Shown: piece after piece, positions 5,711 to 37,439 of the stretch
Position numbering within the stretch: position 1 is the first letter of the stretch
Layout of the letters: each line of letters opens with the position of its first letter
IMG/VR virus record: IMGVR_UViG_3300030397_000666
Coordinates: 1-53,089 of that record
Direction: 5' to 3' (one strand)
Source: a virus
Lineage: Duplodnaviria > Caudoviricetes
Length of the DNA: 53,089 bases
The notes under the pieces: model-generated
Told to the model about the DNA's origin: nothing
Databases searched by the model: none
The model's input: the letters and a program-made list of their open reading frames with translations, nothing else
Position numbers and translations under genes: made by a program

Positions 5711-5718
5711 AGGTAAGC

Positions 5719-19690: not shown

Positions 19691-22421
19691 CCACAATATC
19701 ACAAGCCCTAGAAGCCAAAATGGTTTTAGACACGAGAGTCTTTCAGAAGGAGATGAAGAAAGCCCAAGAGGTTACGCAGAAAACTTCCTCCTTTATGACA
19801 GGTGCTTGGACTGCTGTGGGTATCTCTGTAACACAGCTTACAGGTAAGATCTCGAGCATGCTCAAGCAATCTCTTCAGATTGGCCTTACCTTCGAGCAAG
19901 AAATGGCCGCGGTAAACTCATTGATTGCGAGGGAGTCGGCCGCCACAATTGAGAAGTTTGGCAATGATGTCCTCGGCCTTGCTCAAAAGCTAGGAAAGCC
20001 CCCAGTCGAAATCGCACAAGCCCTCTATCAAGAGATCTCCGCTGGTGCTTTAAATGCTACAGGCGACATGAACGCTTTCACAGAGACAGTTATCAAAGCC
20101 TCTGTAGCAGGTAGAGCAACTGTGGAGTCCACCGCTCGAGCTATGATCTCTGTGATGAACTCCTACGGACTAACACTAGACGAGTCTGGAAGAGCCGCGA
20201 ATAACTTTTTTAACATCGTAAAATTTGGTGTAACAACTCTCCCCGAACTTGCTAATACTATCGGAGGTTTGTATCTACTGCGCGGGCAGCCAAGATAGAG
20301 ATGGAGGACTGGGGTTCCGCCCTAGCTGCCTTAACTCAGTTAGGAAAGCCTACAGAAATCGCGATCACAGAGTTGCGGGCTGCTATCAGTGCCTTCATTA
20401 AACCTACGCAGGACTCCATAAAAGCCGCGGAGGAAATAGGCTTCGAGCTGTCTGCAAGGAAGCTAGAGAAGAGAGGACTAGTTGGTGCACTCCAAGACTT
20501 GAATGCCACAGGGAAGACTTCGATCGCTGTGTTAGGTAGACTATTTCCTAACATTAGAGCGACCAACGCTATAGCCGCCCTCTCCAGTAAAGAAGGTCTT
20601 GATATATTAACAAGAAATATCGATGAATTTACTAGGGGTGCTACCTCAATGGAGGAAGCTTTCGCAGTTATGACCAATACCATGGGATTTGAGATAGCCA
20701 AGCAAAAGTCTGCTATATCAGCCCTAGCTATTGGTATAACCAAAGACTTGGGACCCGCGATCACAGCCATTGTTAGGAACTTTGGAGGAGCAGTCCAGGT
20801 TTTCCTCAAGTTTATTAAACAAACAAAGATTTTAGTCCACACTTTCAACCTATTAGCAGCAGCTTGGAACACCTTCGCTGCAGTATTTCGAGCAGGACTT
20901 GGAGGATTGTCAAAAGGAATAGGCGGCTTTGTTCAAGCTATAAAGAAGATGGGAGCCACTGCAACTATCGTGTGGGAGGGAATGAAACAAGGATTCAACG
21001 TAGTCGCCGAGTCCATTGTAGCTACTATCAACGGGATGGTGGGGGCAATGCGAAGTCTCGCTGAGGCTGCAGATTTCATCGATCCTTCTGGTCTAGCTAA
21101 AAAGGCTGTAGATTCCTTAGAGAAAGTTGAGAAGAGCCTAGACGATCTTTCAGAGAAATTTAAGAATAATACTAAGAAAAACAAGAAGGAAATAGAGGCA
21201 GCAACAAAAGAACTCGCTAAGGATTGGAAGGACAACTACTTCAATAAGTTAGGTGATGAGCTCATAAAACAAGCGGAGGACAATGGTAAGAGTATTGGTA
21301 TAATCTTAGGACTCAACAAGAAAATGTCCAAGTCGGCAGCAGACGAGTCAAAAAAGGGAACTCAAGAAATCAACAAGGATGTTCGGGACCGACAACAATT
21401 CTTCAATAAAGCAATGAAGGAAGAGAGCGATGCTCAGTTTGCAAAGGAACTAGCTGTTAGAAAGCAAGTGGAGGAGACTGTTCGATGGACTGAACGTCAA
21501 TTCAAAATAGAAACAGATGGGTTCCTCAAAGCCTTGAAGATTCAAGTGTCTGCAAAAGAAAAAGCTGAGGAAAAACTAAGATCTCTTACAGTTCAGAGAG
21601 CTAGACAAGCCGAGTCTTTTGAAGAGAGACTCTGGGCTATCACAATGTCTGGCCTCACTGAAGCTGGAAAGAGGATCCAGAAGTTTGGTATCGCAGACAC
21701 CTTCGAGACACGAGCTAAGCAAGCTCTTGGTAGAGGGGATTTCGAGGAAGCGAGAAGACTCGCGGAAAAAGCTCAAGCCCAGTTCGAGGATATAGCTAGC
21801 AGTCAAGACGCACCAGAGGAAGAGAGAAAGCGAGCGCTGCAAGGATTTAAGAAAACTCAGACGTTAATCGAGGGAGCCTTTCAGTCGGAGCAAAATGCTC
21901 AAAAAGATCTAGTAGAACAAAATAAAAGACACATTATGGAGATGTCTCAAAGCCTCAAACAACTTCAGGAAGAAGCAACAATAAAACTCAAGTTTTTGGT
22001 AGACAGTGAAGCAGCTCAACAACAAATAGACAGGCTAAAAGACCTGATGAGAGTCGCTGCGGAACGTACCCCCGCGACGGGGAATACTGCTCAACTTGCA
22101 GGCGCTCCCTTAGGGGTCCCGGCTGCTCCTCCACAAGAACCCGCTGTAGCCTCCCCAAGAGCTCGACCTGTTTTCCCTGGCGGCGAGGGGTTACCTCCAG
22201 AGGCTATGCAGGTCTCTGGTCCAAAAAGTGGAGATGCAAAAATACAGAATGTTGATCTCACTGTAAACTTCGACATAAAGCAGAAGCTAGACCGTCAGGA
22301 GATTAGAGAGGCAACGAACGAAATTAAGAAACAGCTTGATAGAAAATTCGACAGTCAGAGAAGCACAGGATCGAATCGAACAAAACAAGGAACAGGAATT
22401 GCAAACAATGGTACGATTTAA
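19687..22421 (+). CDS. Tape measure protein (~911 aa), split by a 1-nt frame break near 20264-20272
   Basis: TP901-type TMP repeats run across ORFs 19687-20298 and 20301-22421; the shifted frame reads LANTIG-FVSTARAAKIEMEDWGSALAALT. Confidence 0.85.
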
Positions 22422-22934: not shown

Positions 22935-23357
22935 ATGTCTGTAACTTTTGGAACTCTTGAACTTCAGAATCCATCCCTCTTTAACGTTGAAGAAAACGTG
23001 AGGAGACATGGTCTGGGTAGAGCTGCTGGAGGTACCCCCTACAGATACTCTAAGGGGGCAAACTACAAGAGGCTCAGGATAGGGTGGACAGACTTAAGAG
23101 AAGCAGAAAAGGAAGAGCTTGACTCATTCTTCGATACCATGGACGGACCCTCAACAGACTTTACTTTCATTGACCACCACGGAGTGTCAAGGACTTGCTT
23201 CTTCCTGGTCGACGCGCTACCCTGGACAGAGGTAGACGACCAGGTATCCACAACAGGCACATACACAGTCACGGGGGCCCCCGGCTGTACCTTTCCAACG
23301 ACCACTAGAAAAGAAGCTGTCTTTTCCCTTGAAATAGAATTGGAGATTGTGAGTTGA
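22935..23357 (+). CDS. Distal tail (Dit/gpM-like) protein
   Basis: After TMP; L..FF..M.G....FTFID pattern. Confidence 0.55.
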   Translation: MSVTFGTLELQNPSLFNVEENVRRHGLGRAAGGTPYRYSKGANYKRLRIGWTDLREAEKEELDSFFDTMDGPSTDFTFIDHHGVSRTCFFLVDALPWTEVDDQVSTTGTYTVTGAPGCTFPTTTRKEAVFSLEIELEIVS

Positions 23358-26300
23358 GATCACTAACCGGATTGGTAACAACAGAGAAGGGGAAGACGAA
23401 AGAAGTCTCCCCAATCAACATCGTGAGAATAGATTTCGGCGGTGCTCTTGGTACAAAATACTACTCTGATAGGCCTCTGACAACTCCAGTAACTGCAGCT
23501 GGTACCGTTATCGATTGGGGAGATTATTCTCAATCCATCTCCGAAGATAGAGGAGAGGTTTCTGAATACTCGTTCACAATGGAAGACGACGACCTTGGTC
23601 TTTTAGATGATGTCTTTAGAGACCAAATAAGCCAGGGAAAACCTGCAATCCTTTATCAGTTCTTTATCGGCCTCGGCTTGTCCGATCTCACTGTCCTGTT
23701 TAAAGGTGTGGTAGGGAAAGCTGAGTGGAGTGAGGGAGAGCCAAGACAGCTTCGCATAAGCCTAGAGAGCACTGAAACATTTTACTCGAAGCGACTTGGT
23801 ACTCTAGCCTCAGAGGAAAATTTCCCTGACATTCGGAAAGAAGACATTGGAAAAACTATCCCCTACGTCTACGGAGATGTAGAGAGATCCAGCGCCGTTC
23901 AAGTAGTAGCCAGCCCGAAGACCACGCTTGCTATAGACTTGGGATTGATTGGAAGTGAAACCGTTGTGACTGACGGTCGATGTTTCCCCCAAGGAGTAAA
24001 TAAAGACATTTTTATCGGAAGAGAATTGATCCGAGGTAAGTTCGAGGGAAATAAGCTCTTCATCTACGGCCGGGGACTCGTTGTAGCATCTGGTACCACG
24101 AACTCGATGTCTCCAAACATTCTAACCTTTACCGCTTCCCTTGTGCCTGCAGGTTTCTCTTGGGTTGGTTACCACGTCAGATTCTTCCTCCCTTCAGGAG
24201 CTACTCCCGAGAGACTGATAACAAACTTTACAACCCCCGACGTATATGGAATGGACGCCCCCGTTCTAGTACCGGGAACTTCTCCAGGAGTTCTGCATAC
24301 TGAGATCCCTGCTGGTACCCCCTTCGAGATATTCGGAAAGCCTGCAGTACACGGAGCAGGAGAGGAAGTCTACTTGGACCTGCCCGAATATAAGTGGGCT
24401 ATCAACGACGCGGTGTCTGACTCTGTAGACTTCATCGAGATAGCTGCCTCTGTAGTTCTTGCAAGAGACGACGTAAGCAGCAAGTTAAAAGACCTCAACA
24501 CAATAATCAAGATCCCAAAAGACTACTACACAGTAGACCTCAGCGACTCCAGCTTTACGGGAACCATAGGGCACGACATCACAACGATCAGCATGCCCTT
24601 CGACCCTAAGAATTTACCTAATAGCCCCTTCGCGTCTGATGAGATTCTGGCAAGCCTTCGAGGTAGGGACCTGGATAATCCAGCAGATATAATCGACGAC
24701 ATCCTCACGAGGTCCGATGTAACAGACAAGGACACTACGAGTATATCTGACGCGGTCACGGCTACGTCAGATATAAAACTTGGATTCACAATCGAGGAGA
24801 TAAGGCGAGGGATAGAACTAGCTCACGACATCGCTTTTCAGTCTAGGCTCTCCCTAATTTTTGAAGCTGGAGACGCAAGACTTCTTTATCTAACAAATGC
24901 AGCTGGAACCAGCACAACCACAGTAACAGATAGTGGAAGAGCTATCGACGGTCTCGATATAACTCAAGAAGACATCGAGCAGATCTACAACGTCCTGGAT
25001 ATTACCTACAAGGATAAAGGAAAAGAGAAAAGCTTCGAGGTAAGAAATACAGGCTCTGTAACCGAACATGGAGAAAGGCCTAGAGACTTATTCTTCTGGG
25101 TGCACAACAATCGATCGAGCGCTGAGGCAATTGCAATATTTTGGCTAGGTAGGTGGGCCGACGCTGTGGAGCTTGCCACTTTTGAAACATTCCTCAACAC
25201 CCTAGAAGTGGAGCGAGGAGACTGGCTAACCTTATCTTTCACGGACTTTTATACCTCCAAGAAAGGTCGGGTAATCAACATCATTCAAACCCCTGGACAT
25301 GGAGAGAACAATGAAATAGATCGAATTCAGATTACAGCTAGGACTACTGAGTTTGGTGGTTGCTCTGGAAGCTGCCAATTGTTTGGAGAAACAGGTTGCG
25401 ATACTTCCTGCGAGGCTACCTGTCAGAGTTCACCAGAGACAAGCTGCAACTTCGCCTGTGAAACAGCATGTCAGGAAGCCTGCGAGTTGACCTGTGTTTC
25501 TTCTTGCCAGCTTTCCTGTACTGAGTTCGTTCAAACCCTTGCACCAGACGATCCAGACACTGGAGGTTGTGGTACATCCTGCCAGGGAGCCTGTCAGACC
25601 GGCTGTCAGGGCCAGGGCTGTGAAGCTACTGCCTGTCAGACCGGCTGTACTTCTACTGGATGTACTGTCGGATGTGAGACAAATTGTCAAAGCACATGTG
25701 AATTTTCCTGCGAAGTAGGATGTACTACAGGATGCGAATTCGATTGTCAGTCAGGTTGTCAGAACCAAGTAGAAACAGCATGCGCCACAGGTTGCGAAAC
25801 TGGATGCCAAGGATTTTGCACTACAAATTGTCAGACCGGTTGTACTTCCTCATGTGAGCTAGATTGCCAACTAGATTGCCAGACAAATTGTCAAGTCTCT
25901 AGCTGTACTACAAGTTGCGAGGTTGACTGTCAGATTTCTTGTGAGTCTTCTGGTTGTCAGGCTGCCTGCGAAGCAACTGGTTGTCAGATTTCTTGTACGG
26001 CTGCTTGTGAAGCTAGCGCTTGCCAGAGTACGTGTGAGGCTACAGGCTGTCAAGCTTCCTGCCAAGCTGGAGGATGTGAGGCCGTAGGTTGTGAAGCAAC
26101 TGGCTGTCAAGCATGCTGCGAAAACACCTGCCAGAACTCATGCCAGGACGCTTGCCAGACTGGGACCTGCCAGATGTCTTGTACTACAGACTGTCAACAA
26201 GGCTCATGCCAGGGTTCATGCACCTCTGGTTGTGAGATGAATTGTCAAGGAGGCTGCGAAGGATCTTGCCAAGATTGTTGTCAATTCGATGGAACTGAAA

Positions 26301-27115
26301 CAAGCTACACCTGCGAAACCTCTTGCCAGACTGACTGTACGCAATCATGTGAGACCTCTTGCCAAGAAGCGGCGGAGGTTCTGGAGTGTACGCATGTCTG
26401 TCAAGCCTTTTGTCAAACGGGTTGCCAAGCAGGCTGCGAAATAATTTGTCAAACAGGATGCCAATGCGATTGTCAGTTAGGCTGCGAAGGCCAGTGTCAA
26501 AGCGGATGTCAGATAAGTTGTACCTGCGCATGTCAGTCAACAGACGAAACAACGGGAATGTGTACCGCTGCAAATCAAGCAGGATGCTTCACAGCGTGTC
26601 AGACAGGTTTTCAAACTGAGTGCCAGACTAGTTGTCAGGTAGAGTGTCAAGGTTTCTGCCAGACAGGATGTCAGTCTGGATGTGAAATAATCTGTCAAAT
26701 CGGCTGCCAGTGCAACTGTCAAGCCAACGTTGAGACTGTATGCCAGACAGGATGCCAGACAACGTGCCAGTGCGAATGTCAATCTGAGGTAGAGGTATCC
26801 GTCGGAGCTTGTGACGGTACAGGTTGCCAGGGTGGTGCTTGTACTACTGGTGCTCAGCTATCCTTCTGCGCAACTACCTGTCAGATTACTGGATGCACAA
26901 CACAATGTCAATCTTTCTGCGAGTGTGACTGTACTACAGAAGCTTGCGTCGTTGCATGCCAGTCATTCTGCCAGACTGGATGTCAGGTCGGCTGCGAAGC
27001 CTATTGTACTGTGGGTTGTCAGTGTGATTGTCAAGCTACATGCCAGAGTTCCTGTAGGTCTGGGGGCTGCGAAGAATTATGTCAGTGTACTTGTCAGACT
27101 GCAGTACAAATTTAA
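23354..27115 (+). CDS. Tail tip/hub protein with a C-terminal ~580-aa CxxxC-repeat domain
   Basis: N-terminal hub motifs (IPYVYG, NPADII.DIL, LEVERGD); from residue ~670 about 130 Cys by hand count. Confidence 0.8.
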   Translation: MRSLTGLVTTEKGKTKEVSPINIVRIDFGGALGTKYYSDRPLTTPVTAAGTVIDWGDYSQSISEDRGEVSEYSFTMEDDDLGLLDDVFRDQISQGKPAILYQFFIGLGLSDLTVLFKGVVGKAEWSEGEPRQLRISLESTETFYSKRLGTLASEENFPDIRKEDIGKTIPYVYGDVERSSAVQVVASPKTTLAIDLGLIGSETVVTDGRCFPQGVNKDIFIGRELIRGKFEGNKLFIYGRGLVVASGTTNSMSPNILTFTASLVPAGFSWVGYHVRFFLPSGATPERLITNFTTPDVYGMDAPVLVPGTSPGVLHTEIPAGTPFEIFGKPAVHGAGEEVYLDLPEYKWAINDAVSDSVDFIEIAASVVLARDDVSSKLKDLNTIIKIPKDYYTVDLSDSSFTGTIGHDITTISMPFDPKNLPNSPFASDEILASLRGRDLDNPADIIDDILTRSDVTDKDTTSISDAVTATSDIKLGFTIEEIRRGIELAHDIAFQSRLSLIFEAGDARLLYLTNAAGTSTTTVTDSGRAIDGLDITQEDIEQIYNVLDITYKDKGKEKSFEVRNTGSVTEHGERPRDLFFWVHNNRSSAEAIAIFWLGRWADAVELATFETFLNTLEVERGDWLTLSFTDFYTSKKGRVINIIQTPGHGENNEIDRIQITARTTEFGGCSGSCQLFGETGCDTSCEATCQSSPETSCNFACETACQEACELTCVSSCQLSCTEFVQTLAPDDPDTGGCGTSCQGACQTGCQGQGCEATACQTGCTSTGCTVGCETNCQSTCEFSCEVGCTTGCEFDCQSGCQNQVETACATGCETGCQGFCTTNCQTGCTSSCELDCQLDCQTNCQVSSCTTSCEVDCQISCESSGCQAACEATGCQISCTAACEASACQSTCEATGCQASCQAGGCEAVGCEATGCQACCENTCQNSCQDACQTGTCQMSCTTDCQQGSCQGSCTSGCEMNCQGGCEGSCQDCCQFDGTETSYTCETSCQTDCTQSCETSCQEAAEVLECTHVCQAFCQTGCQAGCEIICQTGCQCDCQLGCEGQCQSGCQISCTCACQSTDETTGMCTAANQAGCFTACQTGFQTECQTSCQVECQGFCQTGCQSGCEIICQIGCQCNCQANVETVCQTGCQTTCQCECQSEVEVSVGACDGTGCQGGACTTGAQLSFCATTCQITGCTTQCQSFCECDCTTEACVVACQSFCQTGCQVGCEAYCTVGCQCDCQATCQSSCRSGGCEELCQCTCQTAVQI
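25361..27100 (+). repeat. Coding CxxxC (C-Q/E/T-x-G/S) tandem repeat region, SCIFF-like
   Basis: 12-nt periodic TGY codons; higher-order repeat CQxFCQTGCQxGCExxCxxGCQCxCQ occurs three times. Confidence 0.9.
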
Positions 27116-27151
27116 TCTAGTTTTTTTAGTGTTTCAGGTAAGCTTAATATA

Positions 27152-27370
27152 ATGCCAACTTTCACACCGGGGCCATGCGACTCAGCTTGTCAGAGTCCTC
27201 TACAAATTACCATCGGTTGTAACACCTCATGTCAAGCCCAGTGCGAGACACGATGTACTACAGGCTGCGAGTCCACATGCGAAGTAACTTGTATGACTTC
27301 TTGCCGTGTAGGTTGCGAAATTTACTGTACTACAGGGTGTCAGTGTACTTGTCAGTCTGCTAGTCAATAG
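27152..27370 (+). CDS. 72-aa Cys-rich peptide (15 Cys), SCIFF/ranthipeptide-precursor-like
   Basis: CxxxC spacing; ends GCEIYCTTGCQCTCQ like the repeats of the upstream protein; no SD, ATG 7 nt after an AGGTAAGCT motif. Confidence 0.75.
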   Translation: MPTFTPGPCDSACQSPLQITIGCNTSCQAQCETRCTTGCESTCEVTCMTSCRVGCEIYCTTGCQCTCQSASQ

Positions 27371-27386
27371 TGTTTAGGAGATACAA

Positions 27387-27668
27387 ATGTCGTCAGTAGG
27401 AACAAGAGCAAGAACTTTCACTTTAGCCCTAGCCGGTGCGTCCACTTACCTTGAGTTACCCCTCCCTACAAAAGGAGTTATTCGAGGGCTTACGTTCAAG
27501 AGCAAGACCCCTGAAGTTATCACCTACAGATATGATGGCTCGGGCGCTGTGGTAACCTTAGAAAAAGGGGACGTTTACAACGAAAGAGGTATCGCTCTTC
27601 GACCAGGTTCTAAAGTCTATGTCGCTGGTCCTGCAACGGATACCATCGATGGAGAATACTGGGTGTAA
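27387..27668 (+). CDS. Small beta-rich hypothetical (virion) protein
   Basis: RBS AGGAG; tail module. Confidence 0.6.
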   Translation: MSSVGTRARTFTLALAGASTYLELPLPTKGVIRGLTFKSKTPEVITYRYDGSGAVVTLEKGDVYNERGIALRPGSKVYVAGPATDTIDGEYWV

Positions 27669-27680
27669 GGAGGTTATACC

Positions 27681-28739
27681 ATGGCTATATTTAGAGGTGG
27701 GAAAGGTACTGAATATCCTGGCGGAGGAGGCGGTGGCCTCACTGAACCTGTAGAAGTCGAGGGTCCATCTGGAGGTCCTGTTGAAGTAAAAGGTGATGGT
27801 ACAACCTCAGTCCCTGTTAAGGGAGCCTCTACAACCGAGGTTCCAGTAAAAGGTACCTCTACGGTTGCTGTTCCTGTAAAAGGAGAATCTACGACAGCGG
27901 TTCCAGTAAGCAGCGACTCAACCCTAGAAGTTGAGGGAAAAGTAGGAGGGGTTCCCCTTCCTATTAGTTCTGGGTCTCCGCTTGAAGTGACCAATCCATC
28001 AGGAGGAGCTCTCGACACAAAAGATAGATTCTTCGAGGTAACAAAAGGACTCGTGTCAGGAAGATCCCACGTCAATGTGAATGGTGGCCACAGTAGTGTA
28101 TCAAGCTTCGCGTTCTCCACTCTCACTGAAATAGGCAGCTTCTACACTTATTCAGCTTCTGCAGTTACCCTATACATTTCTAGCTCTTCCGCGTCAGACA
28201 CACAGTCCTTTGAAATCACAGGACTAGACGCAAGTAAAGCCCCTCAGACTGCGACCGTAACGCTAGCGGGTACAACTAAGACAGCTATCACAGGAACCTG
28301 GACTAGAGTCTTTAGTGTTGTAAATAAAGGAACCACGGACAATCTAGGCGACGTGTACGTCTACGAAGACGACACCCCTGTGGGTGGAGTTCCTCCAACT
28401 CTAACGAAGGTTAGGGCTAAAGTCTTAGTGGGAGACAACAAGAGTCGGATGGCCTTATACACAATACCTACGGGAAAAACTGGATACCTTCAACGCATAA
28501 GATTCGCTCGGGGTCTTTGGAGGACCGCGTCGGTTAAACTTCTCGCGAAGGACGAGACCGGTCCCTTCAGAGTCGAGCTATTCGAGGGAGTTGGGAGAGG
28601 AGATCCTGCGCTAGATATTCCCTATAAGGTTATGCCTAAATTCACAGAGAAAACAGATATAGAAGCAAGAGCACTCTACACCGAGCTAGGTACCGGGCTA
28701 ATCTCCTGCACTTTCGATCTAATATTGGTAGATAACTAA
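27681..28739 (+). CDS. Virion structural/fibre-like protein with 10-aa VPVKG repeats
   Basis: Repeats at 27810-27911; C-terminal domain paralogous to 28751-29707. Confidence 0.6.
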   Translation: MAIFRGGKGTEYPGGGGGGLTEPVEVEGPSGGPVEVKGDGTTSVPVKGASTTEVPVKGTSTVAVPVKGESTTAVPVSSDSTLEVEGKVGGVPLPISSGSPLEVTNPSGGALDTKDRFFEVTKGLVSGRSHVNVNGGHSSVSSFAFSTLTEIGSFYTYSASAVTLYISSSSASDTQSFEITGLDASKAPQTATVTLAGTTKTAITGTWTRVFSVVNKGTTDNLGDVYVYEDDTPVGGVPPTLTKVRAKVLVGDNKSRMALYTIPTGKTGYLQRIRFARGLWRTASVKLLAKDETGPFRVELFEGVGRGDPALDIPYKVMPKFTEKTDIEARALYTELGTGLISCTFDLILVDN

Positions 28740-28750
28740 GGAGAAAACAA

Positions 28751-29707
28751 TTGACTGTAATAGTAACAAAAAGCCTCTCAACTGATTTTCCTAACGGCTA
28801 CAACTTCGACAACCTGAAGAAAGCTGTAGACGCTTCAACTGTGATCACAGCGACCTTGTTCCATGGTCCAGTATTCGGCGACGTTATTAACTTTGTTTGG
28901 GATAGGGCCCTCACAGGTCCAGAGGATTCAGAGTTTACCTCAATAATATCAGACCATAATCCCACACCACCAGCAGATCTTAGCTCTCCTGTAAGAGACT
29001 ACTTCGCAGACATCTCTCTCGGGAAGATCTCAGGAGAAGCCTCTTACCCCATGTTTGGTTACAACCCAGACATAGACTCAGGAGCAGACGAAACCATCTG
29101 GAGCGCTAGTGGTATTTTTTCCCTACCCACTGGGGCAGAGACGTTAGACCTAGTAAGTACAAACGCAGCAGATACAGCAGCAGGGACAGGCGCTAGAAAG
29201 GTGAAAATCACAGGACTAGACGCAAACTACAAAATCATTCAAGAGACTGTGACTATGAACGGTCTCACCCCTGTTACCAGTACAAGCAGTTTCCTAAGAA
29301 TGTACTACGCCACTGTAGAAGAGGTGGGTACAGGGGGTATTAACGCTGGAGATATAACGATAACTCAAACCACAAGCAGCAAGGTGATGGGCTTGATTCC
29401 ACTAAACGATGGTTGTGCATTTCAATCAATGTTCACGGTACCACAAGGGAAGAAAGGTCTTATTCACAACATCATGTACGCTGTGAATAAGTCAAAAGAC
29501 GCAACACTAATCATCAAGAGAAAACTCTTTGGAAAACCCCTACTCACCATAGGAAGAATCCCAGGATTTGAGGGAATCTCTATTAAGCCTTTCAAGCCTC
29601 CGCTAGTTTTTACTGAAAAAACAGACGTAATTTTCGAGGCGGATGGAGTAACAACCAGCAACAATATTGTAGCCCTATCCTACAGTATGCAACTCGTTGA
29701 TAACTAG
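28751..29707 (+). CDS. Virion structural protein, paralogue of the preceding gene's C-terminal domain
   Basis: Shared ITGLDA....TVT..G.T, T(I/V)P.GK.G, FTEKTD and terminal LVDN. Confidence 0.6.
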   Translation: MTVIVTKSLSTDFPNGYNFDNLKKAVDASTVITATLFHGPVFGDVINFVWDRALTGPEDSEFTSIISDHNPTPPADLSSPVRDYFADISLGKISGEASYPMFGYNPDIDSGADETIWSASGIFSLPTGAETLDLVSTNAADTAAGTGARKVKITGLDANYKIIQETVTMNGLTPVTSTSSFLRMYYATVEEVGTGGINAGDITITQTTSSKVMGLIPLNDGCAFQSMFTVPQGKKGLIHNIMYAVNKSKDATLIIKRKLFGKPLLTIGRIPGFEGISIKPFKPPLVFTEKTDVIFEADGVTTSNNIVALSYSMQLVDN

Positions 29708-29718
29708 GAGTAAAGAGG

Positions 29719-30165
29719 ATGGCAATAGAACGAAAAGGAGTCACGACATTCAACGGAGTCTCAGGCCCTGTGACCCTTGTTTCTGCAGATTCCTCAGTGA
29801 CTATAACCCCCGACGCTGCAGCGGGGGAAATAGACTTAAGTGCAGTGGGTGGAAACTCGAGAGTCGATTTTGACTTTAGCAATGAACCAAGTTTAGACCT
29901 CAAAGAAATCACATCAGGAAAGACTCTTGAAAGAGTTGTCATCCTGATAACCACACCTTTTACATCTGGAACGAACCTTCAAGTAGGTTTCACTGGAAGC
30001 CTTGGAGAAGTAGCAGACACAGGAGACATAGACCCACAAACTGCTGGACTATATGTCCGACAACCCTATAAGGTCATGACTGCAACAGATACATTGAAGC
30101 TCACTTTCTCAGGAACAACACCAACCGCTGGAGCAGGAACGATCTTCATCGCTGAAGGAGCGTAA
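29719..30165 (+). CDS. Virion structural protein
   Basis: GVTTFNGVSGPVTL fibre-type motif followed by a beta-sandwich-like domain. Confidence 0.5.
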   Translation: MAIERKGVTTFNGVSGPVTLVSADSSVTITPDAAAGEIDLSAVGGNSRVDFDFSNEPSLDLKEITSGKTLERVVILITTPFTSGTNLQVGFTGSLGEVADTGDIDPQTAGLYVRQPYKVMTATDTLKLTFSGTTPTAGAGTIFIAEGA

Positions 30166-30169
30166 AATC

Positions 30170-30610
30170 ATGAAGCGAAAACTCAGATCTAAAATATGCT
30201 GCAAGATAAAAGACCACCAATCAGAAAACCAAGGTCAGAACCTAACAGTTTGTAAAGTCGTAAGACTCTGGATGGAGGCTCTCTCAGAAATGTCAGAGGG
30301 AGAGAAGCCCCGAAGAGAGGTAAGAAGAGTGATAGAGGAAGCCTACGACTCAAACTATCACGAGGTATCCGACGGCTGTTCTTACGTAGACGAATTCGGA
30401 TGGGGACCCCTAAAAAATCCCACGTGCGTTGGACACGACCACCTTTACTTCAAGGGAGAACTAACCAGACTCGAGTGCGATGTTTGGTTTCTAAATGCAA
30501 TGATAGACTTCGGTCACCCCCTTCGAGGAAGACTCAGATATTGGGGGGTTAGAGCCTTCGGTTGGTTACCCTGGAGAAAACACAGAAAAAGAGAGGTTAA
30601 TAAAGCATGA
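30170..30610 (+). CDS. DUF1353 / prokaryotic PLA2-like protein
   Basis: SDGCS, C..HD.LY, CD..F...M and YWGVRAFG motifs. Confidence 0.6.
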   Translation: MKRKLRSKICCKIKDHQSENQGQNLTVCKVVRLWMEALSEMSEGEKPRREVRRVIEEAYDSNYHEVSDGCSYVDEFGWGPLKNPTCVGHDHLYFKGELTRLECDVWFLNAMIDFGHPLRGRLRYWGVRAFGWLPWRKHRKREVNKA

Positions 30611-32682
30611 CAGTCCTTCTCGAAGAAGTAGGGGGAACCTCAAGAGATAGATTCCAAATATCTAAAGGTGGCCCTCATGTTAAAAAATCTGGGTCCCAGA
30701 TGCAAATCGTTGGAGCTGATGGAACAACGCTAGCAAATCTCTCAGTGGCGGAGCCTGTAGCAGCATCTGACGCAGCAACAAAAAACTACGTCGATACCTC
30801 TGGTGGAGGTGGGGGTGGCTTCTGGTCAAGAAATAGTACACCCACACCGAAGGAACTATCCCCAACTACAGCAGGAGACGTGGTTCTTTTTTCAGCTGGC
30901 ACCAGCTCAAACCCTGGTATAGGGAAGGTGGGAGAAATCAACACAGGTGTCTACTGGCCTGCTGCTTCTGAGATAGGTATCACGCTAGGAGGTACGCTTC
31001 ACACTCATTTTAAAGCGAACGAAATTACTGTAACTGGCTCAGGCGGAGGTAGCAATACTTGGCGAGCCATTAGCGCGAGCGAGATAAACATGAAGCCTAG
31101 CTCTACCTCTCTATCTCCTAAATTTCATCTTGGAATAATTGGGACGGGGACCACTAACCCCGCAGGGACTGAAGCGATCTTCGCTGCTTCTGGCTGGAGA
31201 GCTGCTTCTACCTCAAACAATCGACCAGGTATCGACACAATCTTAGAAGGTGGCCCAGGTACCGGTAGTAGTACCTCTCGAGGGGAGGTTGCAATAAAAG
31301 TTGCAGTGGCCACAGGCTCAGGAACCACGCTACAAACTACAACGGAAGTTGGAAGATTCAAGAGAGACGGATCCCTTGCTGTGGGTACTACAGGAACTAC
31401 GATAATACTCCCTGTATCCAGCACTGTTACAAGTCTAAGAACAAGCTCGACTACTGCTTTTACACTACAGCTTGGTCCTAGAGGAACAGGAGCAACCTCT
31501 CCAGCGCTTAGCACAACTCTAGGGTCTGCAGGCTGGATCGCGAATTCAAGCACGAACAATAGAGTAGGAACTGACACCAAGATAGCTGCGGGGCCAGGTA
31601 CTGGAAGCAGTACCACAGGAGGGGACGTCATTTTCATAACCCCCGACGCTGGAGCCTCTGGGATGACTCCTCAAACTTCCACCAACAAAATGGTTTTACA
31701 TAGAGAGGGACATCTTGCTATCGGCCCAAATGGTACCGGATCTTTTTGGAGAAACATTGATACAAGAACTTATAATTTCTACAGCTCCCTCGCTGGAAGG
31801 TCCAATCTCTACGCTGGTATTGTTGGAGAAGGCTCCACAGATTCAAGCACTGAAACCTACATAGGGAACCCAGGATTTCTCAGCGCCTCCACTCTAAACA
31901 ACAGAGGCGGAGGGGATACAGTTATCACATCCGGTCCAGGTACTGGAAGTAGTACCACTCGAGGAGACATTATCTTCAGAACCCCAAACGCTGGAGCTTC
32001 TGGAACAGCTGCCCAAACTACTACCGTCAAGATGACCCTTCACCGAGAAGGTCACGTCGTGATAAACGACCTCGGCTCTGAGTCAACTCCTGCTCTAGCT
32101 ATTGGTGGCGAAACAGACACCGGCTGGTACATGATCGCTGCGAATAGGATAGCGCTTACAGTTCTAGCAAGAAAGGCCTGGGACTTAACCCGGTCAGGAA
32201 CGACAGACACTGTGAGAATCGGGGAGGAGGGAGAAACCACTAACAACCCGCACAACTGGGATGTTAGAGTCAATGGTTGGACTTCAGCCAGCACGCTCAC
32301 CAATAGAATAGGTGTAGGCCTAGAATGGACGACAGGTCCAGGAACAGGCACAGGAACACCAGGTGACTTCGAGTGGCACACCTACAACGTGGGGACTACG
32401 GGAACCACAGTTCAATCTACTAGGCGTCAGATCATGAAGCTCACAGGTGAGAGAAACGACCTTCAACTCGGGGATACCTCCACTAGTGGAAGAAATTGCA
32501 AAATTTTTATTGGTACCACTATTTCAACCTTTGGGTCTATGGATGGACCAGGCCTCGTCCTCGGTGACGTCACAACAGAACCTACAGCTGGAGCTAGTGG
32601 AAAGGGCGTCTTGTTTGTAAATGGAAATGATTTAAAATTTATGGATGCTACTGGAGCCGTCTCCACTGTAGCTTTTGTCTAA
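30607..32682 (+). CDS. Tail fibre-like protein with four GPGTG modules
   Basis: DAATKNYVD fibre motif; G/S/T-rich; repeated NNR.G....GPGTG(S/T)..GD. Confidence 0.7.
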   Translation: MTVLLEEVGGTSRDRFQISKGGPHVKKSGSQMQIVGADGTTLANLSVAEPVAASDAATKNYVDTSGGGGGGFWSRNSTPTPKELSPTTAGDVVLFSAGTSSNPGIGKVGEINTGVYWPAASEIGITLGGTLHTHFKANEITVTGSGGGSNTWRAISASEINMKPSSTSLSPKFHLGIIGTGTTNPAGTEAIFAASGWRAASTSNNRPGIDTILEGGPGTGSSTSRGEVAIKVAVATGSGTTLQTTTEVGRFKRDGSLAVGTTGTTIILPVSSTVTSLRTSSTTAFTLQLGPRGTGATSPALSTTLGSAGWIANSSTNNRVGTDTKIAAGPGTGSSTTGGDVIFITPDAGASGMTPQTSTNKMVLHREGHLAIGPNGTGSFWRNIDTRTYNFYSSLAGRSNLYAGIVGEGSTDSSTETYIGNPGFLSASTLNNRGGGDTVITSGPGTGSSTTRGDIIFRTPNAGASGTAAQTTTVKMTLHREGHVVINDLGSESTPALAIGGETDTGWYMIAANRIALTVLARKAWDLTRSGTTDTVRIGEEGETTNNPHNWDVRVNGWTSASTLTNRIGVGLEWTTGPGTGTGTPGDFEWHTYNVGTTGTTVQSTRRQIMKLTGERNDLQLGDTSTSGRNCKIFIGTTISTFGSMDGPGLVLGDVTTEPTAGASGKGVLFVNGNDLKFMDATGAVSTVAFV

Positions 32683-32691
32683 GAGGATAAC

Positions 32692-33006
32692 ATGGCAATA
32701 ACAGGATCTATCACAACACCCTCACAGGAAACCTATGCGAATTCTTACGTCAAGGTCTGCGAGATAACTCAAAACCTAGAGGATCAAGTCGTGTCTTTCC
32801 GGGCAACAATCCACAAGACGCAAACCTCCTACGATAATGAGGAAGCAATAGTCGAGCCCGTAAAGACCTACCTCATCGAAGACGCACACTACACCACCTA
32901 TTTCGCAGACGCTGTTCTCGATACAGTAAACAAAAGGACAGAGACGCAGTGTGAGCAATACCTCATCAATGAAGAGTCTCGATTCTCTGGATTCACCACT
33001 GTGTAA
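32692..33006 (+). CDS. Small protein after the fibre gene (possible fibre chaperone)
   Basis: RBS GAGGA; position. Confidence 0.5.
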   Translation: MAITGSITTPSQETYANSYVKVCEITQNLEDQVVSFRATIHKTQTSYDNEEAIVEPVKTYLIEDAHYTTYFADAVLDTVNKRTETQCEQYLINEESRFSGFTTV

Positions 33007-33027
33007 AATTTTAGACATGTAAAAAAC

Positions 33028-33056
33028 TTTACACAAAATCGTGACGCTATTATAAT
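33028..33056 (+). promoter_or_regulatory. Sigma70-type promoter of the JAB/Ubl/rSAM/GT operon
   Basis: TTTACA-N17-TATAAT; spacer CAAAATCGTGACGCTAT is almost duplicated at 44245-44271 (-). Confidence 0.75.
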
Positions 33057-33082
33057 GGGGAGAGTAAAAAAATTTCTTAGAG

Positions 33083-33505
33083 GTGACAATGCACGCAGTA
33101 AAAGGGAACATATTCGCGTTTAGAGCTGCCTTAGACATATTAAGACAGAGGGATTCGGAAGACACTAAAGTGGGAGAGATGAGGATACTCATTCGCATTC
33201 TAGGGAAGCTAGAAAAAAAGGTACTCCCTCTCGATAACTACATTCTCATAAAAGGGCAGAATGAAACAAACGCAGCTGGAGAAAAATACAAGGTTGCGTT
33301 TCCAGAGCTCCACCCCACCAAAATAACGCACGAACACTGGAGGGATAAAAAACACCCCCCAATCCTCATCGAATTCGAGGAAGATGAAATGAAGGTGTTG
33401 AAAAGCGCCTTCTCAGATGAAAAGAGTTTTTCAAGAGAGTACACGAACCAAGTCATGTTATTCGTTGAAGCTTTAGATTCCGCAGAACCGAGGTCAGGAA
33501 AGTGA
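33083..33505 (+). CDS. Hypothetical protein, first gene of the operon
   Basis: Downstream of the promoter; GTGA overlap with the JAB gene. Confidence 0.6.
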   Translation: MTMHAVKGNIFAFRAALDILRQRDSEDTKVGEMRILIRILGKLEKKVLPLDNYILIKGQNETNAAGEKYKVAFPELHPTKITHEHWRDKKHPPILIEFEEDEMKVLKSAFSDEKSFSREYTNQVMLFVEALDSAEPRSGK

Positions 33506-33957: not shown

Positions 33958-34216
33958 CGTTCGCCTGAGAATCCCCTACTCTTTTCAGAAGGCTGTCGAG
34001 GCTCCTATGTTGATCGACACTACCTGCGAGATAAAGGAAGGCCTCCTCGAATTGGACCCCAAGACCCACCCAGGCGTGGTAGAACTCGCAAGGGATGGAC
34101 AGAAAAAAAAGAATCTCGCGGTCTTACTTGATGGTATTCCTCTGAAAGATCCCAATCCAGAACTATCAGAAGTAAGAGAAATAACCCTTGTCCCCATCTT
34201 TGGAGATACACAATGA
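33950..34216 (+). CDS. Ubiquitin-like MoaD/ThiS/CysO beta-grasp protein lacking the terminal GG
   Basis: VRLRIP..F, HPG, NLAVLLDG, L....EITLVPIFGDTQ. Confidence 0.7.
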   Translation: MANVRLRIPYSFQKAVEAPMLIDTTCEIKEGLLELDPKTHPGVVELARDGQKKKNLAVLLDGIPLKDPNPELSEVREITLVPIFGDTQ

Positions 34217-36234
34217 AACTCCTTAACGTCAATAAGGTAATTCACAATCAAATCAAGTGGCTACACGTGGAGCCCAGAATAGCAAAGTTTAAGCTTCGAG
34301 GAAAATATATCCTTTACGATGAGAACTCAATGTCACTCTGGGAAGTAGACCAGAAAACCTACGAACGAGCAGACCTGAACAAGATAGGGTCGAGACAAAA
34401 ACCCTTCTTCGATCAGATGTTCAATCAACCTGACTTCAGAATGATTGTCTTCCAGAGTACGCACGCCTGCAACTTAGACTGTGGCTACTGCTTCGTTACA
34501 GCTCACTATGTGAACCACGACAACAGACTCCACCTAGACGTAGCGAAGAAAGCAATCGACAAATACCAGCCCCATACCGCTAAACAAAACTACAACATTG
34601 GTTTCTTTGGTGGTGAGCCTCTAATGAATTGGGAAACCATCTTTAAGATCATGGAGGACGTGAAGGAGCGCGGTAAGAAGTATGGCCTCGGTCATCAATT
34701 CCACATCACAACTAATGCAACACTTGTCACAAGAGAGATGGCTGAATACTTCAGCAAAAATAACGTTTCCTTTATTGTCTCCCTTGATGGTACCGAAGGC
34801 TTCCACAACAACAATAGACCCTATCATGGAGGGGGTGGAACTTGGCGAGACGTAATGAGAGGACTCGAGTATCTCACCGAAGCTTTCCACAAAAACCGCC
34901 CAGGTAAAGAGGTACCTATCACCCTGAGGTCCACCTTCGACAAAAAAGGAGTTGACCTGGTTGAGTGTTTAGAATTCCTAAATGGTCTCATGTACGACGG
35001 CCTCGGCTCCCATGTTTCTGTTGAGCCTGCTTCTCTTGGTGAGAGTTGTTCAACAAATAGTGTAAGCCTCGACACATTCAATCTCGAAGAGCTCCGAGCT
35101 ATGTTCGAGAGGGAATACTGGCGAGCAGCTGACTGGTTCCTAGAAGAACTGAGAAAGGGAAGACGTCCAAGCTTCCATCATTTCGAGGTGCCGCTACAAA
35201 GAATCTACGATAGAATCCCCAGTGTTTCAGAATGTGGCGCAGGAAAAGGCTACATCTCTATCGGGCCCGGTGGTACAATCTCCTCATGCCATAGAGAACA
35301 TGGTTCTCTCATTGGTAACCTCTTCAAGGGAGGAATTGACCCAACCCTTCAAGCTAAATGGCTTGACAACAGACTCTACAATAGAACGACTTGCCCAGAT
35401 TGTTGGCGGAGAAATCTATGTGGGGGTGGATGCCGAGCTAACTCTGCCCTAATCAACGACAACATCTATGCACCTTCTGTTGTAGAGTGTCTCTTTAAGG
35501 AAATGGAGACGCTTCCTGTGTTCTATCTCCTTGCCGAAATGAGCGACGAGGAAAAACTCCAGTTCTCTAAACAGCAAAGAATCCCTACCCCCGTAGGTGA
35601 GAATGTTGCCCCAGAAAATCTAACGTACAAGAAGAAAGTAAACCAGGGACCAAGACAGGAGAATCCTAATAATTCTGTGCAAACCTGGCAGCTAGAAAAT
35701 AAGTACACCTACGACGCCGTTACAGCTCTTCCCAAGAGTACAGCTGAAGTAGGAAAAGGTGGTAACGGTGCGAAGCTTCCTCAAATCACTCAGGCTATGA
35801 AGATTAAACAGCCTGGAGGGGAGACCACAACCTACCGGGAAGATGGTACAGCCACAGCAACTATGGAGCCCGAGCAAGACGAAGACGTCCCTAGTTGGGT
35901 TAAGGATCAAATTGATCCAAGCCTAAAAGAACCTCCTAAAAATCCCTACGACGACGATGACGACTGGAAGGGAATCGATCCAAAAACAAGAAAAGAGATC
36001 GAGAAAAAACAGGAGAAACAAAAGGACTGGATTAACCCTGAACGGAATCAGAACAAGTATGAGAACAGGCCCGTCGCTTCAGACGAAGAAGAGGAAGTTG
36101 AAATCAACGACACCTTCGAGGCCATCACAGAAGACGAGGAAGACTCAGGTTGCTGCAAGGATGACCCAGAAAAATCCTGCGGCTGCGGTCCAAAAGACGA
36201 AGACTCAGAACCAACGGAGCTAGAAATCGAATAA
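34213..36234 (+). CDS. Radical SAM/SPASM peptide maturase (SCIFF/ranthipeptide CteB-like) with a long acidic C-terminal extension
   Basis: CNLDCGYC, FFGGEPL, TTNATL, SLDG, SVEP; SPASM CGAG...G....CH and CPDC....LCGGGC...C; N-terminal KFKLRGKYILYDENS resembles RRE strands. Confidence 0.9.
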   Translation: MKLLNVNKVIHNQIKWLHVEPRIAKFKLRGKYILYDENSMSLWEVDQKTYERADLNKIGSRQKPFFDQMFNQPDFRMIVFQSTHACNLDCGYCFVTAHYVNHDNRLHLDVAKKAIDKYQPHTAKQNYNIGFFGGEPLMNWETIFKIMEDVKERGKKYGLGHQFHITTNATLVTREMAEYFSKNNVSFIVSLDGTEGFHNNNRPYHGGGGTWRDVMRGLEYLTEAFHKNRPGKEVPITLRSTFDKKGVDLVECLEFLNGLMYDGLGSHVSVEPASLGESCSTNSVSLDTFNLEELRAMFEREYWRAADWFLEELRKGRRPSFHHFEVPLQRIYDRIPSVSECGAGKGYISIGPGGTISSCHREHGSLIGNLFKGGIDPTLQAKWLDNRLYNRTTCPDCWRRNLCGGGCRANSALINDNIYAPSVVECLFKEMETLPVFYLLAEMSDEEKLQFSKQQRIPTPVGENVAPENLTYKKKVNQGPRQENPNNSVQTWQLENKYTYDAVTALPKSTAEVGKGGNGAKLPQITQAMKIKQPGGETTTYREDGTATATMEPEQDEDVPSWVKDQIDPSLKEPPKNPYDDDDDWKGIDPKTRKEIEKKQEKQKDWINPERNQNKYENRPVASDEEEEVEINDTFEAITEDEEDSGCCKDDPEKSCGCGPKDEDSEPTELEIE

Positions 36235-37439
36235 TGGAAATTTTGCTCGACTCTATGGTTGAAGGGGATCCCCAGGTCCCCTTCAAGTATGTTCGAGCCG
36301 TTCGAGAGAGCGGTGGACTGGGGGATGTTGTTAGATGCTTAGCGGTACTCCAAGGGTTGAGAGAGAAATATCCAGACGCTCGAGTACATTTCTTCGGTCC
36401 CGGATACTTAGCGGATCTTGTGGTACCAAGAGCAAAGAACGCCTTCGACAGTTATATCAGATGTGAGAATCAAAGCAGGGCAAGAGACGCCGTAATCGAT
36501 GAAGATGTTTTCCCTCATCTTAATGTAGGCATTGAATACGACGAGTCTCACGACATGTTCTGTCCTGCTTACCTTGAGGAGCCTGCAACGGGGGGGATTG
36601 TCTGCCAGGAAAGAACAGAGCTATGGTGTAGACACGCAGATGTCCCCCTCTCTAGGCCTCGTCTAATTCCATTAGAACAAGACTTGCAAGTTGCAGAAAA
36701 CATGATGAATCAACACGACAGGATCGTGGGGATCCAGGTTGGGGCAACTTGTAGATCTAGAGAATGGCCATTCGAGAACTGGGCCCAGTTGATCAAGATG
36801 CTCCGAAGAGAAGGAATCCATGTTGTAATTTTCGACGTGTGCTATAGATGGGGAGACACCATTTCTCACAGCGATTGTGAGATGGTAGTGAATGGCTCCT
36901 GGTTCGACGTAGTGGGAAAGATAATGTCGACGAACCTAATGATCACACCAGATAGTGGCTTCTATCATCTGTCTGGAGCGTTAAAGAAAAAGACTCTTGG
37001 TATTTTTGGGCCCACTAGCGGCCAGGTAATATCTAGGATCTGGAACATGGAAGTTCCTACACACTTCTACATTCAGACAGACTGGAGAGACGTGGACCCA
37101 GACATCCTACCTAAGAAAAATGGAAGTGGTAAACCCTGCATTCCTATTTGTTATCAACGTTGGGAGAGAGGGTGGGATGGTGCAAGGTACAGGGAGAAAA
37201 AAGAATATTGCGCGCTCATAAAGCAGATAACTCCAGGAATGGTGTTCAATCAAGTGATGAGCATGTTGAACGATCCTCACGGAAACAACCCAGGGCTAGC
37301 AAGAGCTTTCGAGCACTACGACCACGAGCATGGGTACCCACTTAGCTTAAAACAAAAGATTGTGAAGTGGAAACAATTAAACTCAAACGTAAAACGTCAA
37401 GAGCAAACAAAAGAGCTAGAGAAAAACAATAAGACTTGA
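36234..37439 (+). CDS. GT9-family (heptosyltransferase-like) glycosyltransferase
   Basis: GGLGDVV, GA....REWP.ENW, ITPDSGFYHLSGAL...TLGIFGPT. Confidence 0.85.
   Translation: MEILLDSMVEGDPQVPFKYVRAVRESGGLGDVVRCLAVLQGLREKYPDARVHFFGPGYLADLVVPRAKNAFDSYIRCENQSRARDAVIDEDVFPHLNVGIEYDESHDMFCPAYLEEPATGGIVCQERTELWCRHADVPLSRPRLIPLEQDLQVAENMMNQHDRIVGIQVGATCRSREWPFENWAQLIKMLRREGIHVVIFDVCYRWGDTISHSDCEMVVNGSWFDVVGKIMSTNLMITPDSGFYHLSGALKKKTLGIFGPTSGQVISRIWNMEVPTHFYIQTDWRDVDPDILPKKNGSGKPCIPICYQRWERGWDGARYREKKEYCALIKQITPGMVFNQVMSMLNDPHGNNPGLARAFEHYDHEHGYPLSLKQKIVKWKQLNSNVKRQEQTKELEKNNKT

Follow-up and report, generated by a model that had tools for sequence, protein, structure and literature searches.

Thioether stapling of whole proteins by radical S-adenosylmethionine (rSAM) enzymes is already known, as are CXXX-repeat proteins that are the targets of such enzymes. 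In Methanococcus voltae the SPASM rSAM enzyme CrpC installs ranthionine crosslinks on the cysteine-rich, repeat-bearing protein CrpA, whose C-X-X-Q/D motifs were read by the authors as suggestive of rSAM thioether formation, and the same paper describes QhpD as joining Cys to Glu (S-Cγ) and to Asp (S-Cβ) through thioethers in a protein subunit (PMC13692751, 2026). Its supplements catalogue Cys-rich proteins associated with rSAM enzymes in the different domains of life. Here we describe a candidate for a related system in a virus particle. The DNA analysed, hereafter the window, is the complete 53,089-bp virus record IMGVR_UViG_3300030397_000666, which carries a siphophage-type structural module recognized with PHROGs. 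Its tail-tip gene encodes a protein that resembles gpJ of phage lambda and ends in a 584-residue repeat with Cys at about every fourth position, and an rSAM/SPASM enzyme is encoded downstream on the same strand. With modest confidence, we favour the reading that this repeat is a protein-sized rSAM substrate that is stapled by ranthionine-type thioethers, possibly glycosylated, and forms a robust central tail fibre, a chemistry that we infer from gene content.

The locus shares part of its design with each of the described systems. Its likeness to CrpA and CrpC lies in a Cys-rich repeat protein beside a SPASM rSAM enzyme, in the pairing of Cys with Q/D and in a low-confidence structure prediction. 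CrpA is a cellular protein of 28.8 kDa whose repeat is 17 residues long and has the motif C-X-X-Q/D, and ranthionines were shown by experiment on this protein rather than on a peptide. The window candidate is a tail-tip protein of the virion, in which the repeat unit has 4 residues, the Cys number ~133 and Cys is followed by Q/E (position C+1). CrpC belongs to TIGR04463, a family in which the window rSAM reaches only 56.5 bits against a cut-off of 525. QhpC and QhpD are, by the same paper, a case of rSAM/SPASM thioethers in a protein subunit, and the window rSAM matches the QhpD family TIGR03906 below its cut-off; QhpC is a small enzyme subunit that carries three crosslinks, in contrast to the hundred-fold repeat in a candidate virion fibre. 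The best sequence and structure matches of the window enzyme are to the SCIFF/ScfB-CteB and PapA/PapB systems, with which it has the rSAM cluster and a seven-Cys SPASM motif in common. The SCIFF and PapA substrates are peptides of ~45 amino acids with a leader, whereas the candidate substrate here is a domain of 584 residues behind a structural domain of 669, which does not fit the classical ranthipeptide precursor (~45 amino acids, six Cys) and has no NCBIfam match. In TIGR04117, 'Cys-Xaa-Xaa-Xaa repeat radical SAM target protein', and its maturase TIGR04115, Cys at every fourth residue likewise goes with a dedicated rSAM enzyme. The TIGR04117 proteins were curated by comparative genomics and are small and bacterial, not phage tail proteins, and we know of no experiment on TIGR04117 or TIGR04115. 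The TIGR04117 hidden Markov model has no match in the 584-residue domain and scores E 2.8 and 8.1 bits (cut-off 50) with a separate 72-residue open reading frame (ORF) of the window; the window rSAM matches TIGR04115 in its N-terminal core only, at 61.5 bits against a cut-off of 350.

A literature search found no report of thioether stapling in a part of a virion or of a link between a phage tail Cys repeat and an rSAM enzyme, and the words 'phage' and 'tail' are absent from the main text of PMC13692751, the supplements of which might hold phage-borne examples. Leads to the disulfides of cyanophage Pam3, a cyanomyovirus 'antibiotic' rSAM, the CAP domain of phage Stills, CASP16 and marine viral Fe-S genes were set aside. 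The new element would be a virion tail-tip protein as substrate, within a conserved cassette of tail protein, rSAM and a family 9 glycosyltransferase (GT9).

The tail-tip protein and its cysteine repeat

In the window the tape measure gene (20301..22421, + strand; best PHROGs match phrog_991, E 1.4e-14, and a weak match to Pfam PhageMin_Tail) marks the tail-tip module and is followed by three small ORFs and then by an ORF of 1253 residues (23354-27115). Residues 1-669 (23354..25360, + strand), with a single Cys, probably form a gpJ-like hub or tip domain: a profile of 39 family members (A2) matches the lambda tip attachment protein J (8iyk_J, E 9.8e-10; 9e7m, E 6.1e-10) over ~175 residues, at gpJ residues 323-501, and the homologue P0019 passes Pfam Phage-tail_3 (PF13550) with 25.2 bits against a cut-off of 23. 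The window protein by itself has no Pfam or PHROGs match, and tblastn of the whole protein against 50,697 GenBank phage records gave none. With phmmer, the N-terminal 669 residues had 1099 relatives at E<=1e-3 among 1.84 billion representatives. The C-terminal part of lambda gpJ is the central fibre, which binds the receptor. The place after the tape measure, as for gpJ, and the profile match put the repeat at the position of gpJ's central-fibre, receptor-binding end, as the initial annotation had proposed; gpJ itself lacks the Cys repeat, and in the window protein the tetrad repeat replaces the fibre and receptor part.

The repeat domain, recognized by composition, periodicity and homologues, comprises exactly the last 584 residues of the ORF (670-1253) and the stop codon (25361..27115, + strand). 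From the letters alone it had been described as a ~580-residue extension with ~23% Cys, spaced every fourth or sometimes fifth residue and followed by Q, E or T, with no Lys and a single Arg, and counting bears this out. The domain contains 133 Cys (22.8%), 13.7% T, 13.4% Q, one Arg, one His in 584 residues and no Lys, whereas the other window ORFs of at least 100 residues contain 1.14% Cys. The 132 gaps between successive Cys include 84 of four, 18 of five and 14 of two residues, and Cys is followed by Q (67), E (29), T (19) or D (5) in 120 of 133 cases. In 10,000 permutations of the same residues, gaps of four numbered 13.9 on average (standard deviation 3.5, maximum 29) and Cys was followed by one of these four residues 50.6 times (standard deviation 4.9, maximum 71).

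Three Cys-free linkers named in the initial annotation were located in the translation on the + strand: PDDPDTGG (25544..25567), FDGTETSYT (26285..26311), whose G and E are invariant in 14 homologues, and STDETTGM (26537..26560). The super-repeat that ends in CQCxCQ is also present in three copies, each of 30 residues instead of the ~26 first estimated, and these lie on the + strand at 26387..26476 (C-terminal CQCDCQ), 26633..26722 (CQCNCQ) and 26945..27034 (CQCDCQ). The copies are 70-77% identical in amino acid and 59-69% in nucleotide sequence, with synonymous differences in 10-15 of the 21-23 codons for identical residues; across 14 aligned close homologues, 62 Cys columns within the extension do not vary. 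The earlier suggestion that selection acts on the protein agrees with these codon differences and conserved Cys columns, a descriptive result rather than a formal ratio of nonsynonymous to synonymous substitutions. No long exact DNA repeats were found in the region, and recent slippage-type low complexity was rejected in view of the conserved Cys columns and of a DNA identity between copies of 59-80%.

A fourth copy of the super-repeat lies in the separate 72-residue Cys-repeat ORF (27152..27370, + strand; 15 Cys, 20.8%), which resembles the terminal block of the fibre with 53-60% amino acid identity and may represent a further, small substrate or else a paralogue of the fibre's terminus. This ORF is in the frame of the tail gene, from which it is separated by a single TAA stop and 12 sense codons (27113-27154). 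Read-through of that TAA would append a Cys-repeat tail of 85 residues; the arrangement is possibly a coincidence. Cys-repeat ORFs in tandem also occur at L004, L177, L179, L181, L183 and L188 among the homologous loci described below, and in the last five of these two or three of them precede the rSAM gene.

The repeat matched no PHROGs or NCBIfam model and none of the Pfam copy searched, which lacks PF27846; a sequence search of the PDB returned nothing at E<=1, and the ESM Atlas held no usable match. An AlphaFold2 (AF2) monomer model built with 14 homologues has a mean predicted local distance difference test score (pLDDT) of 36.6 and a predicted template modelling score of 0.23; it contains low-confidence helices and no confident fold. 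A three-copy complex prediction of residues 300-587, made without controls, scored 0.00 and speaks neither for nor against trimerisation.

The initial annotation had flagged a possible mis-assembly near position ~25350. In each of three runs of one aquatic-metagenome study a single contig covers 23300-27400 with 0 differences; these runs may be the source of the window DNA and do not count as independent support. Among the 50 best relatives of the N-terminal domain, 46 have at least 10 Cys in some 60-residue window, starting right after ~residue 670, and two of the four exceptions are shortened proteins of 554 and 574 residues. Among the other 97 relatives, which are more distant, just 16 are rich in Cys. 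(The relatives examined were 147 of 150 listed out of the 1099; P0020, P0069 and P0115, themselves Cys-rich, were left out.) A mis-assembled fusion was thus rejected on the zero-difference contigs together with the Cys-rich extension in 46 of 50 relatives from other sources.

A search for similar extensions on other hub proteins had also been suggested. A search of residues 670-1253 against 5.8 billion proteins found 145 homologues at E<=1e-3, carried by varied phage tail proteins, and Cys-dense blocks of ~100-750 residues are present in all 120 homologues listed. Pooling of 6498 C-x3-C tetrads from these 120 proteins gave Q (35.9%), E (35.3%) and T (7.3%) at C+1, Q or E together accounting for 71% of tetrads and for a median of 88% per protein, and the consensus C-[Q/E/T]-[T/S/V/A]-[G/S/A/T]; Lys, Arg, Pro and Trp each make up ~1% or less of the blocks. 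In 77 of the 120 the block is the end of the protein, with no more than 10 residues after it, and in 34 at least 40 further residues follow, among them a 404-residue domain in P0024 and architectures that are lectin-like or bear carbohydrate-binding modules. By hand count, 84 of the 120 carry the Pfam tag PF27846.1, which is absent from the window protein and its six closest relatives; no mention of the accession PF27846 was found in the searchable literature.

The radical SAM enzyme and its linkage to the repeat

The rSAM/SPASM enzyme (34213..36234, + strand; 673 residues; Pfam Radical_SAM, E 4.2e-18) has its best NCBIfam matches to not_ScfB, a ScfB-related 'orphan' maturase (NF040492, E 7.6e-58), the SCIFF maturase (TIGR03974, 1.4e-53), the PapB ranthipeptide maturase (NF047865, 3.8e-52, over profile positions 6-330 of 330) and QhpD (TIGR03906, 1.4e-45). 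These top matches are all thioether-forming maturases of peptides or proteins, and all score below the curated cut-offs. The closest solved structure is 5wgg/5why (E 4.9e-42); the 5wgg entry is entitled 'Structural Insights into Thioether Bond Formation in the Biosynthesis of Sactipeptides', and PMC13692751 gives 5WHY as CteB. An AF2 model of the window enzyme built with 26 homologues has a pLDDT of 73, is confident over residues 1-455, with a core mostly above 85, and is disordered after residue 459. Foldseek matched it to 5wgg/5why at E 6e-23, and VIA aligned 382-398 residues with Z 33.0-33.3 and a root-mean-square deviation of 2.9 Å, so that model residues 19-444 correspond to chain residues 1-450 of the CteB fold, its N-terminal domain included; the next neighbours, ChlB and anSME, follow at Z ~26. 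The CxxxCxxC motif (C86/C90/C93) and the seven-Cys SPASM motif (C341, C359, C394-x2-C397-x5-C403-x3-C407, C426) are invariant in the 26 homologues.

Homologues of the enzyme number 785 at E<=1e-3. A search of viral contigs with the single rSAM sequence found no relative. Three of the 26 aligned homologues (P0268, P0269 and P0274) bear a short CxxxC repeat, for example C-Q-Y-A-C-Q-T-N-C, in their own C-terminal tails, as if they carried a piece of the substrate. In the window enzyme, residues 459-673 (35587-36234) form an acidic tail of ~215 residues that is predicted to be disordered, terminates in CC...CGCG and is common only to the closest homologue, P0263. The 88-residue ORF directly upstream of the rSAM gene (33950-34216) was considered as a stand-alone recognition protein and rejected, as it has no family match and no homologue in related loci.

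Linkage of the two genes was examined from both sides. Seven pairs of tail-protein and rSAM homologues have longest source contigs of equal size (62808, 13435, 38990, 30094, 17894, 14814 and 21759), and the 33,494-bp IMG/VR record G003 holds both a Cys-repeat tail gene and an rSAM gene. An ORF was counted as a Cys-repeat ORF if it had at least 10 Cys per 60 residues and a run of at least six Cys spaced 4-5. On the enzyme side, metagenomes were scanned with the rSAM alignment, giving 80 loci. In eight of the best 14 the sequence ahead of the rSAM gene extends for 1.3 kb or more, and in five of these eight (L006, L007, L009, L013 and L016) a Cys-repeat ORF lies directly upstream, compared with one of the 66 other loci. 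A second rSAM scan, of one genome per prokaryotic species, also gave 80 loci, nine of them with such an ORF. In the top three (L085-L087) the end of a gpJ-like Cys-repeat ORF is 14-2474 nt ahead of the open frame, counted from stop to stop, that contains the rSAM; two of these loci are in planctomycete metagenome-assembled genomes (MAGs), and L087 is the contig of P0024.

On the repeat side, IMG/VR was scanned with a search pattern that included the repeat, which gave 21 loci with diverse carriers in 20 new records. The rSAM profile was found in 12 of these 20 viral records, including both of those at least 90% complete, and all 12 rSAM genes are on the same strand as the Cys-repeat gene and within 1.8 kb of it, 11 downstream and one upstream. 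In five IMG/VR records with Cys-poor gpJ-like relatives (maximum 3-4 Cys per 60 residues) no rSAM gene was found by the same profile search that had detected the one in G003. Thirteen of 21 against none of five corresponds to a one-sided hypergeometric probability of ~0.02, for records that are not phylogenetically independent and many of which are fragments. Synteny by blastp shows the order tape measure, 140-residue protein, Cys-repeat tail protein, rSAM and GT9 at L016, and the same order with an additional 98-residue Cys ORF between tail gene and rSAM in G003 (loci L003/L004). A Cys-rich, substrate-like gene beside the enzyme is thus found in relatives of the window, where the genes are adjacent. 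A CteB/PapB-like rSAM in the window, its synteny with Cys-repeat genes in relatives and its absence from the Cys-poor controls lend the thioether reading strong contextual support.

Several further layouts were observed among the scanned loci. In four genome loci of Oscillospiraceae and Peptoniphilaceae type (L133, 11038-13194; L145, 11092-12795; L149, 10734-12443; L152, 1956-4295) the gene of a more distant rSAM (25-30% identity) directly precedes a gene for a 568-780-residue protein with an N-terminal Cys repeat, so that the pairing recurs on other carrier proteins; L149 also has a tape-measure-like ORF. Small CxxxC-repeat ORFs of 86-222 residues lie directly upstream of related rSAM genes in MAGs of Solibacteraceae (L088, 1511-2176), Desulfobaccales (L089, 9342-9749) and Thermodesulfobacteriota (L090, 765-1022), a classical precursor-maturase layout; those of L089 and L090 are rich in Lys, not in Glu/Gln. 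Record G015 has three rSAM-like genes in a row after the Cys-repeat gene (4121-7188), and in G018, G022 and G027 open frames of 812-1488 residues enclose the rSAM match, which suggests further fusions.

The start of the window GT9 gene (36234..37439, + strand) overlaps the rSAM stop. The product, of the heptosyltransferase family, matches Pfam Glyco_transf_9 (PF01075) at E 8.6e-14 with 51.9 bits against a cut-off of 22; it falls below the cut-off of equivalogs specific for lipopolysaccharide (LPS), with 44.7 against 185 bits. A sequence search of the PDB gave LPS heptosyltransferases at 5e-5 and only LPS heptosyltransferases at E<=0.1. Some relatives hyperglycosylate Ser in adhesin repeats, and the PDB includes structures of TibC, one of the protein (autotransporter) heptosyltransferases TibC/AAH. 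The GT9 gene directly follows the rSAM gene in seven of the 13 rSAM-positive viral records and occurs in none of the five Cys-poor controls, and two homologues are rSAM-GT9 fusions (P0297, 780 residues; P0320, 794 residues). Adjacency and fusions suggest that GT9 probably glycosylates the Ser/Thr-rich repeat.

Proposed thioether stapling and its alternatives

Cys and Gln/Glu (or Thr/Asp) are paired at ~1:1, which together with the family of the enzyme and the conserved adjacency of the genes argues for enzymatic thioether stapling. In such a scheme the 584-residue extension would have two roles, as the distal end that forms the fibre of a tail-tip protein resembling lambda gpJ and as the substrate of the phage's own rSAM enzyme. 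In the infected cell the enzyme would most likely turn most of the ~133 thiols per chain into ranthionine-type thioether bridges that join Cys to side-chain carbons of the accompanying Gln, Glu, Thr or Asp. With an acceptor at +1, +5 or -3 from the Cys, two ring registers fit, namely [Q/E]-x-x-C units placed end to end or overlapping C-x4-[Q/E] rings, and either would string many small rings together into a long chain. This Ser/Thr-rich repeat would probably also receive sugar from the neighbouring GT9. A stiff central tail fibre that withstands redox change and proteases would result; it forms the protein end in 77 of the 120 listed homologues and a stalk bearing a distal domain in 34. A chain that is heavily stapled, sugar-coated and free of Lys/Arg should resist trypsin-like proteases, reduction and oxidation, which would suit an exposed central fibre. 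The failure of AF2 to give the unmodified repeat a confident fold counts in favour of this scheme. In its fullest form, a central fibre made by the ribosome and matured like a giant peptide of the kind that is ribosomally synthesized and then modified post-translationally (RiPP), with more than 100 consecutive thioether rings per chain formed by the rSAM/SPASM enzyme and then glycosylation by GT9, we hold it more tentatively, at slightly less than an even footing. Bridges between the three chains that would lock a trimer covalently are less likely.

Several observations weigh against stapling of the repeat by this enzyme. The chemistry is argued from context and sequence rather than from chemical evidence. 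The enzyme misses all equivalog cut-offs (NF040492, 196.4 against 855 bits; TIGR03974, 182.3 against 425; NF047865, 177.6 against 340; TIGR03906, 155.8 against 453), so that it belongs to a related but distinct clade to which an exact reaction is not assignable. In the window itself the rSAM gene, on the same strand as the tail gene, is 7.1 kb away and not adjacent, with nine ORFs between the two (27387-34216), among them genes of tail-fibre type. Three of the eight metagenome loci with sufficient upstream sequence (L008, L014 and L017) have no Cys-repeat ORF upstream of the rSAM gene, and eight of the 20 repeat-bearing viral records have no rSAM gene; five of these eight records end within 1.2 kb after the Cys-repeat gene, while G023, G025 and G028 do not, and the repeat match in G028 covers only ~43 residues. 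The candidate acceptors stand at +1, +5 or -3 from the Cys, as opposed to +3/+4 in the motifs of CrpA or PapA. Complete modification of a trimeric fibre would call for some 400 crosslinks, much to ask of a class of enzyme that is usually slow, and the modification may therefore be partial. The Q/E beside Cys could instead serve solubility or metal ligation. Finally, the sample is aquatic, and the host cytoplasm may not support an O2-labile enzyme.

One alternative keeps the enzyme and the substrate and changes the reaction: the rSAM would modify the repeat by other chemistry, such as sactionine formation (S-Cα), Cys oxidation as in anSME, C-C crosslinking, epimerisation or methylation. Every curated thioether-maturase cut-off was missed, the next structural neighbours ChlB and anSME do other reactions, and SPASM families are chemically diverse, with cyclophane, sulfatase and epimerase types in the NCBIfam match list. 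Nevertheless, the top four families and the top structure are formers of Cys thioethers and lead by more than 20 orders of magnitude in E-value and by 6-7 Z units, and the 1:1 pattern of Cys with Q/E/T/D fits side-chain acceptors; we regard another chemistry as unlikely.

To a similar degree improbable is an unmodified disulfide ladder or knot that is oxidised after lysis and stiffens the fibre, with the rSAM acting elsewhere, on the small Cys ORFs or on a host target. Cys at i and i+4 share a helix face, and AF2 draws helices, if of low confidence, in the repeat; the sample is aquatic, the window rSAM is not adjacent to the tail gene, and cyanophage Pam3 has disulfide-dependent tail attachment (PMC9942802). 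A ladder of this kind would leave unexplained the strand-conserved adjacency of rSAM and Cys repeat across different carriers, the conserved Q/E after Cys and the absence of rSAM from the Cys-poor relatives, and the Cys count is odd (133), with no confident disulfide-rich fold predicted.

We give still less credence to a polymetallic thiolate filament, in which Cys layers of a trimer would ligate Zn, Fe or Fe-S with Glu/Gln in the second shell. Lambda-type tail tips do hold an Fe-S cluster, and the CQCxCQ motifs resemble the spacing in metallothioneins. The CrpA operon is also suspected of a metal role (PMC13692751). The repeat, however, matches no metal-binding family or solved structure and has hardly any His, and a metal filament leaves the conserved rSAM/GT9 cassette unexplained. 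Least probable is that RiPP-like precursors, from which a free peptide is made, are encoded only by the short Cys-repeat ORFs beside the tail gene (27152-27370 in the window), the extension being related but unmodified: such ORFs do lie directly upstream of rSAM genes in the bacterial MAG loci L088-L090, and the 98-residue Cys ORF of G003 lies between tail gene and rSAM, but at L006, L016, L087, G009 and G011 the rSAM is next to the large protein itself and no small ORF intervenes, and the 72-residue ORF is a copy of the fibre's terminal block, so that an enzyme recognizing one should recognize the other.

Neighbouring genes and implications

The structural module of the window further includes, by PHROGs, a terminase (4037-5710), a portal (6057-7721), a head morphogenesis protein (7609-10872) and a capsid/protease-like protein (13611-14801). 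The 140-residue protein encoded at 22935..23357 (+ strand) has no Pfam or PHROGs family match; in L001, L002, L003, L016 and L086 its blastp homologues are the immediate upstream neighbours of the gpJ-like gene, and it is a putative tip assembly partner. Downstream of the tail-tip gene, two adjacent phrog_8198 paralogues (27681-28739 and 28751-29707) are followed by a chaperone-like ORF (30170-30610, phrog_1158) and a 691-residue protein, which together probably form a side-fibre module. Two genes upstream of the rSAM, a 151-residue ORF (33502-33957) matches phrog_30 'minor tail protein' at 2.3e-5, an NCBIfam desampylase at 2.7e-5 and, weakly, Prok-JAB. It is a gpK-like JAB/MPN domain at an unusual location and a candidate processing protease. 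A 1562-residue ORF (47176-51864) has no Pfam or PHROGs match.

If the tail-tip repeat is indeed stapled by the rSAM enzyme, thioether stapling of the RiPP type would extend from peptides and two cellular proteins to the virus particle. The fibre would be the first known structural part of a virion that needs radical chemistry for its assembly, and the largest thioether-stapled product described. Such a function would give a role to a large set of 'orphan' ScfB-like rSAM enzymes in phages and prophages (785 homologues; phrog_1802) and would explain the widespread, uncharacterised Cys-repeat module on tail proteins (145 homologues). It would also represent a new kind of chemically inert protein fibre, one that could bear on host recognition in aquatic and anoxic habitats and could serve as a biomaterial.

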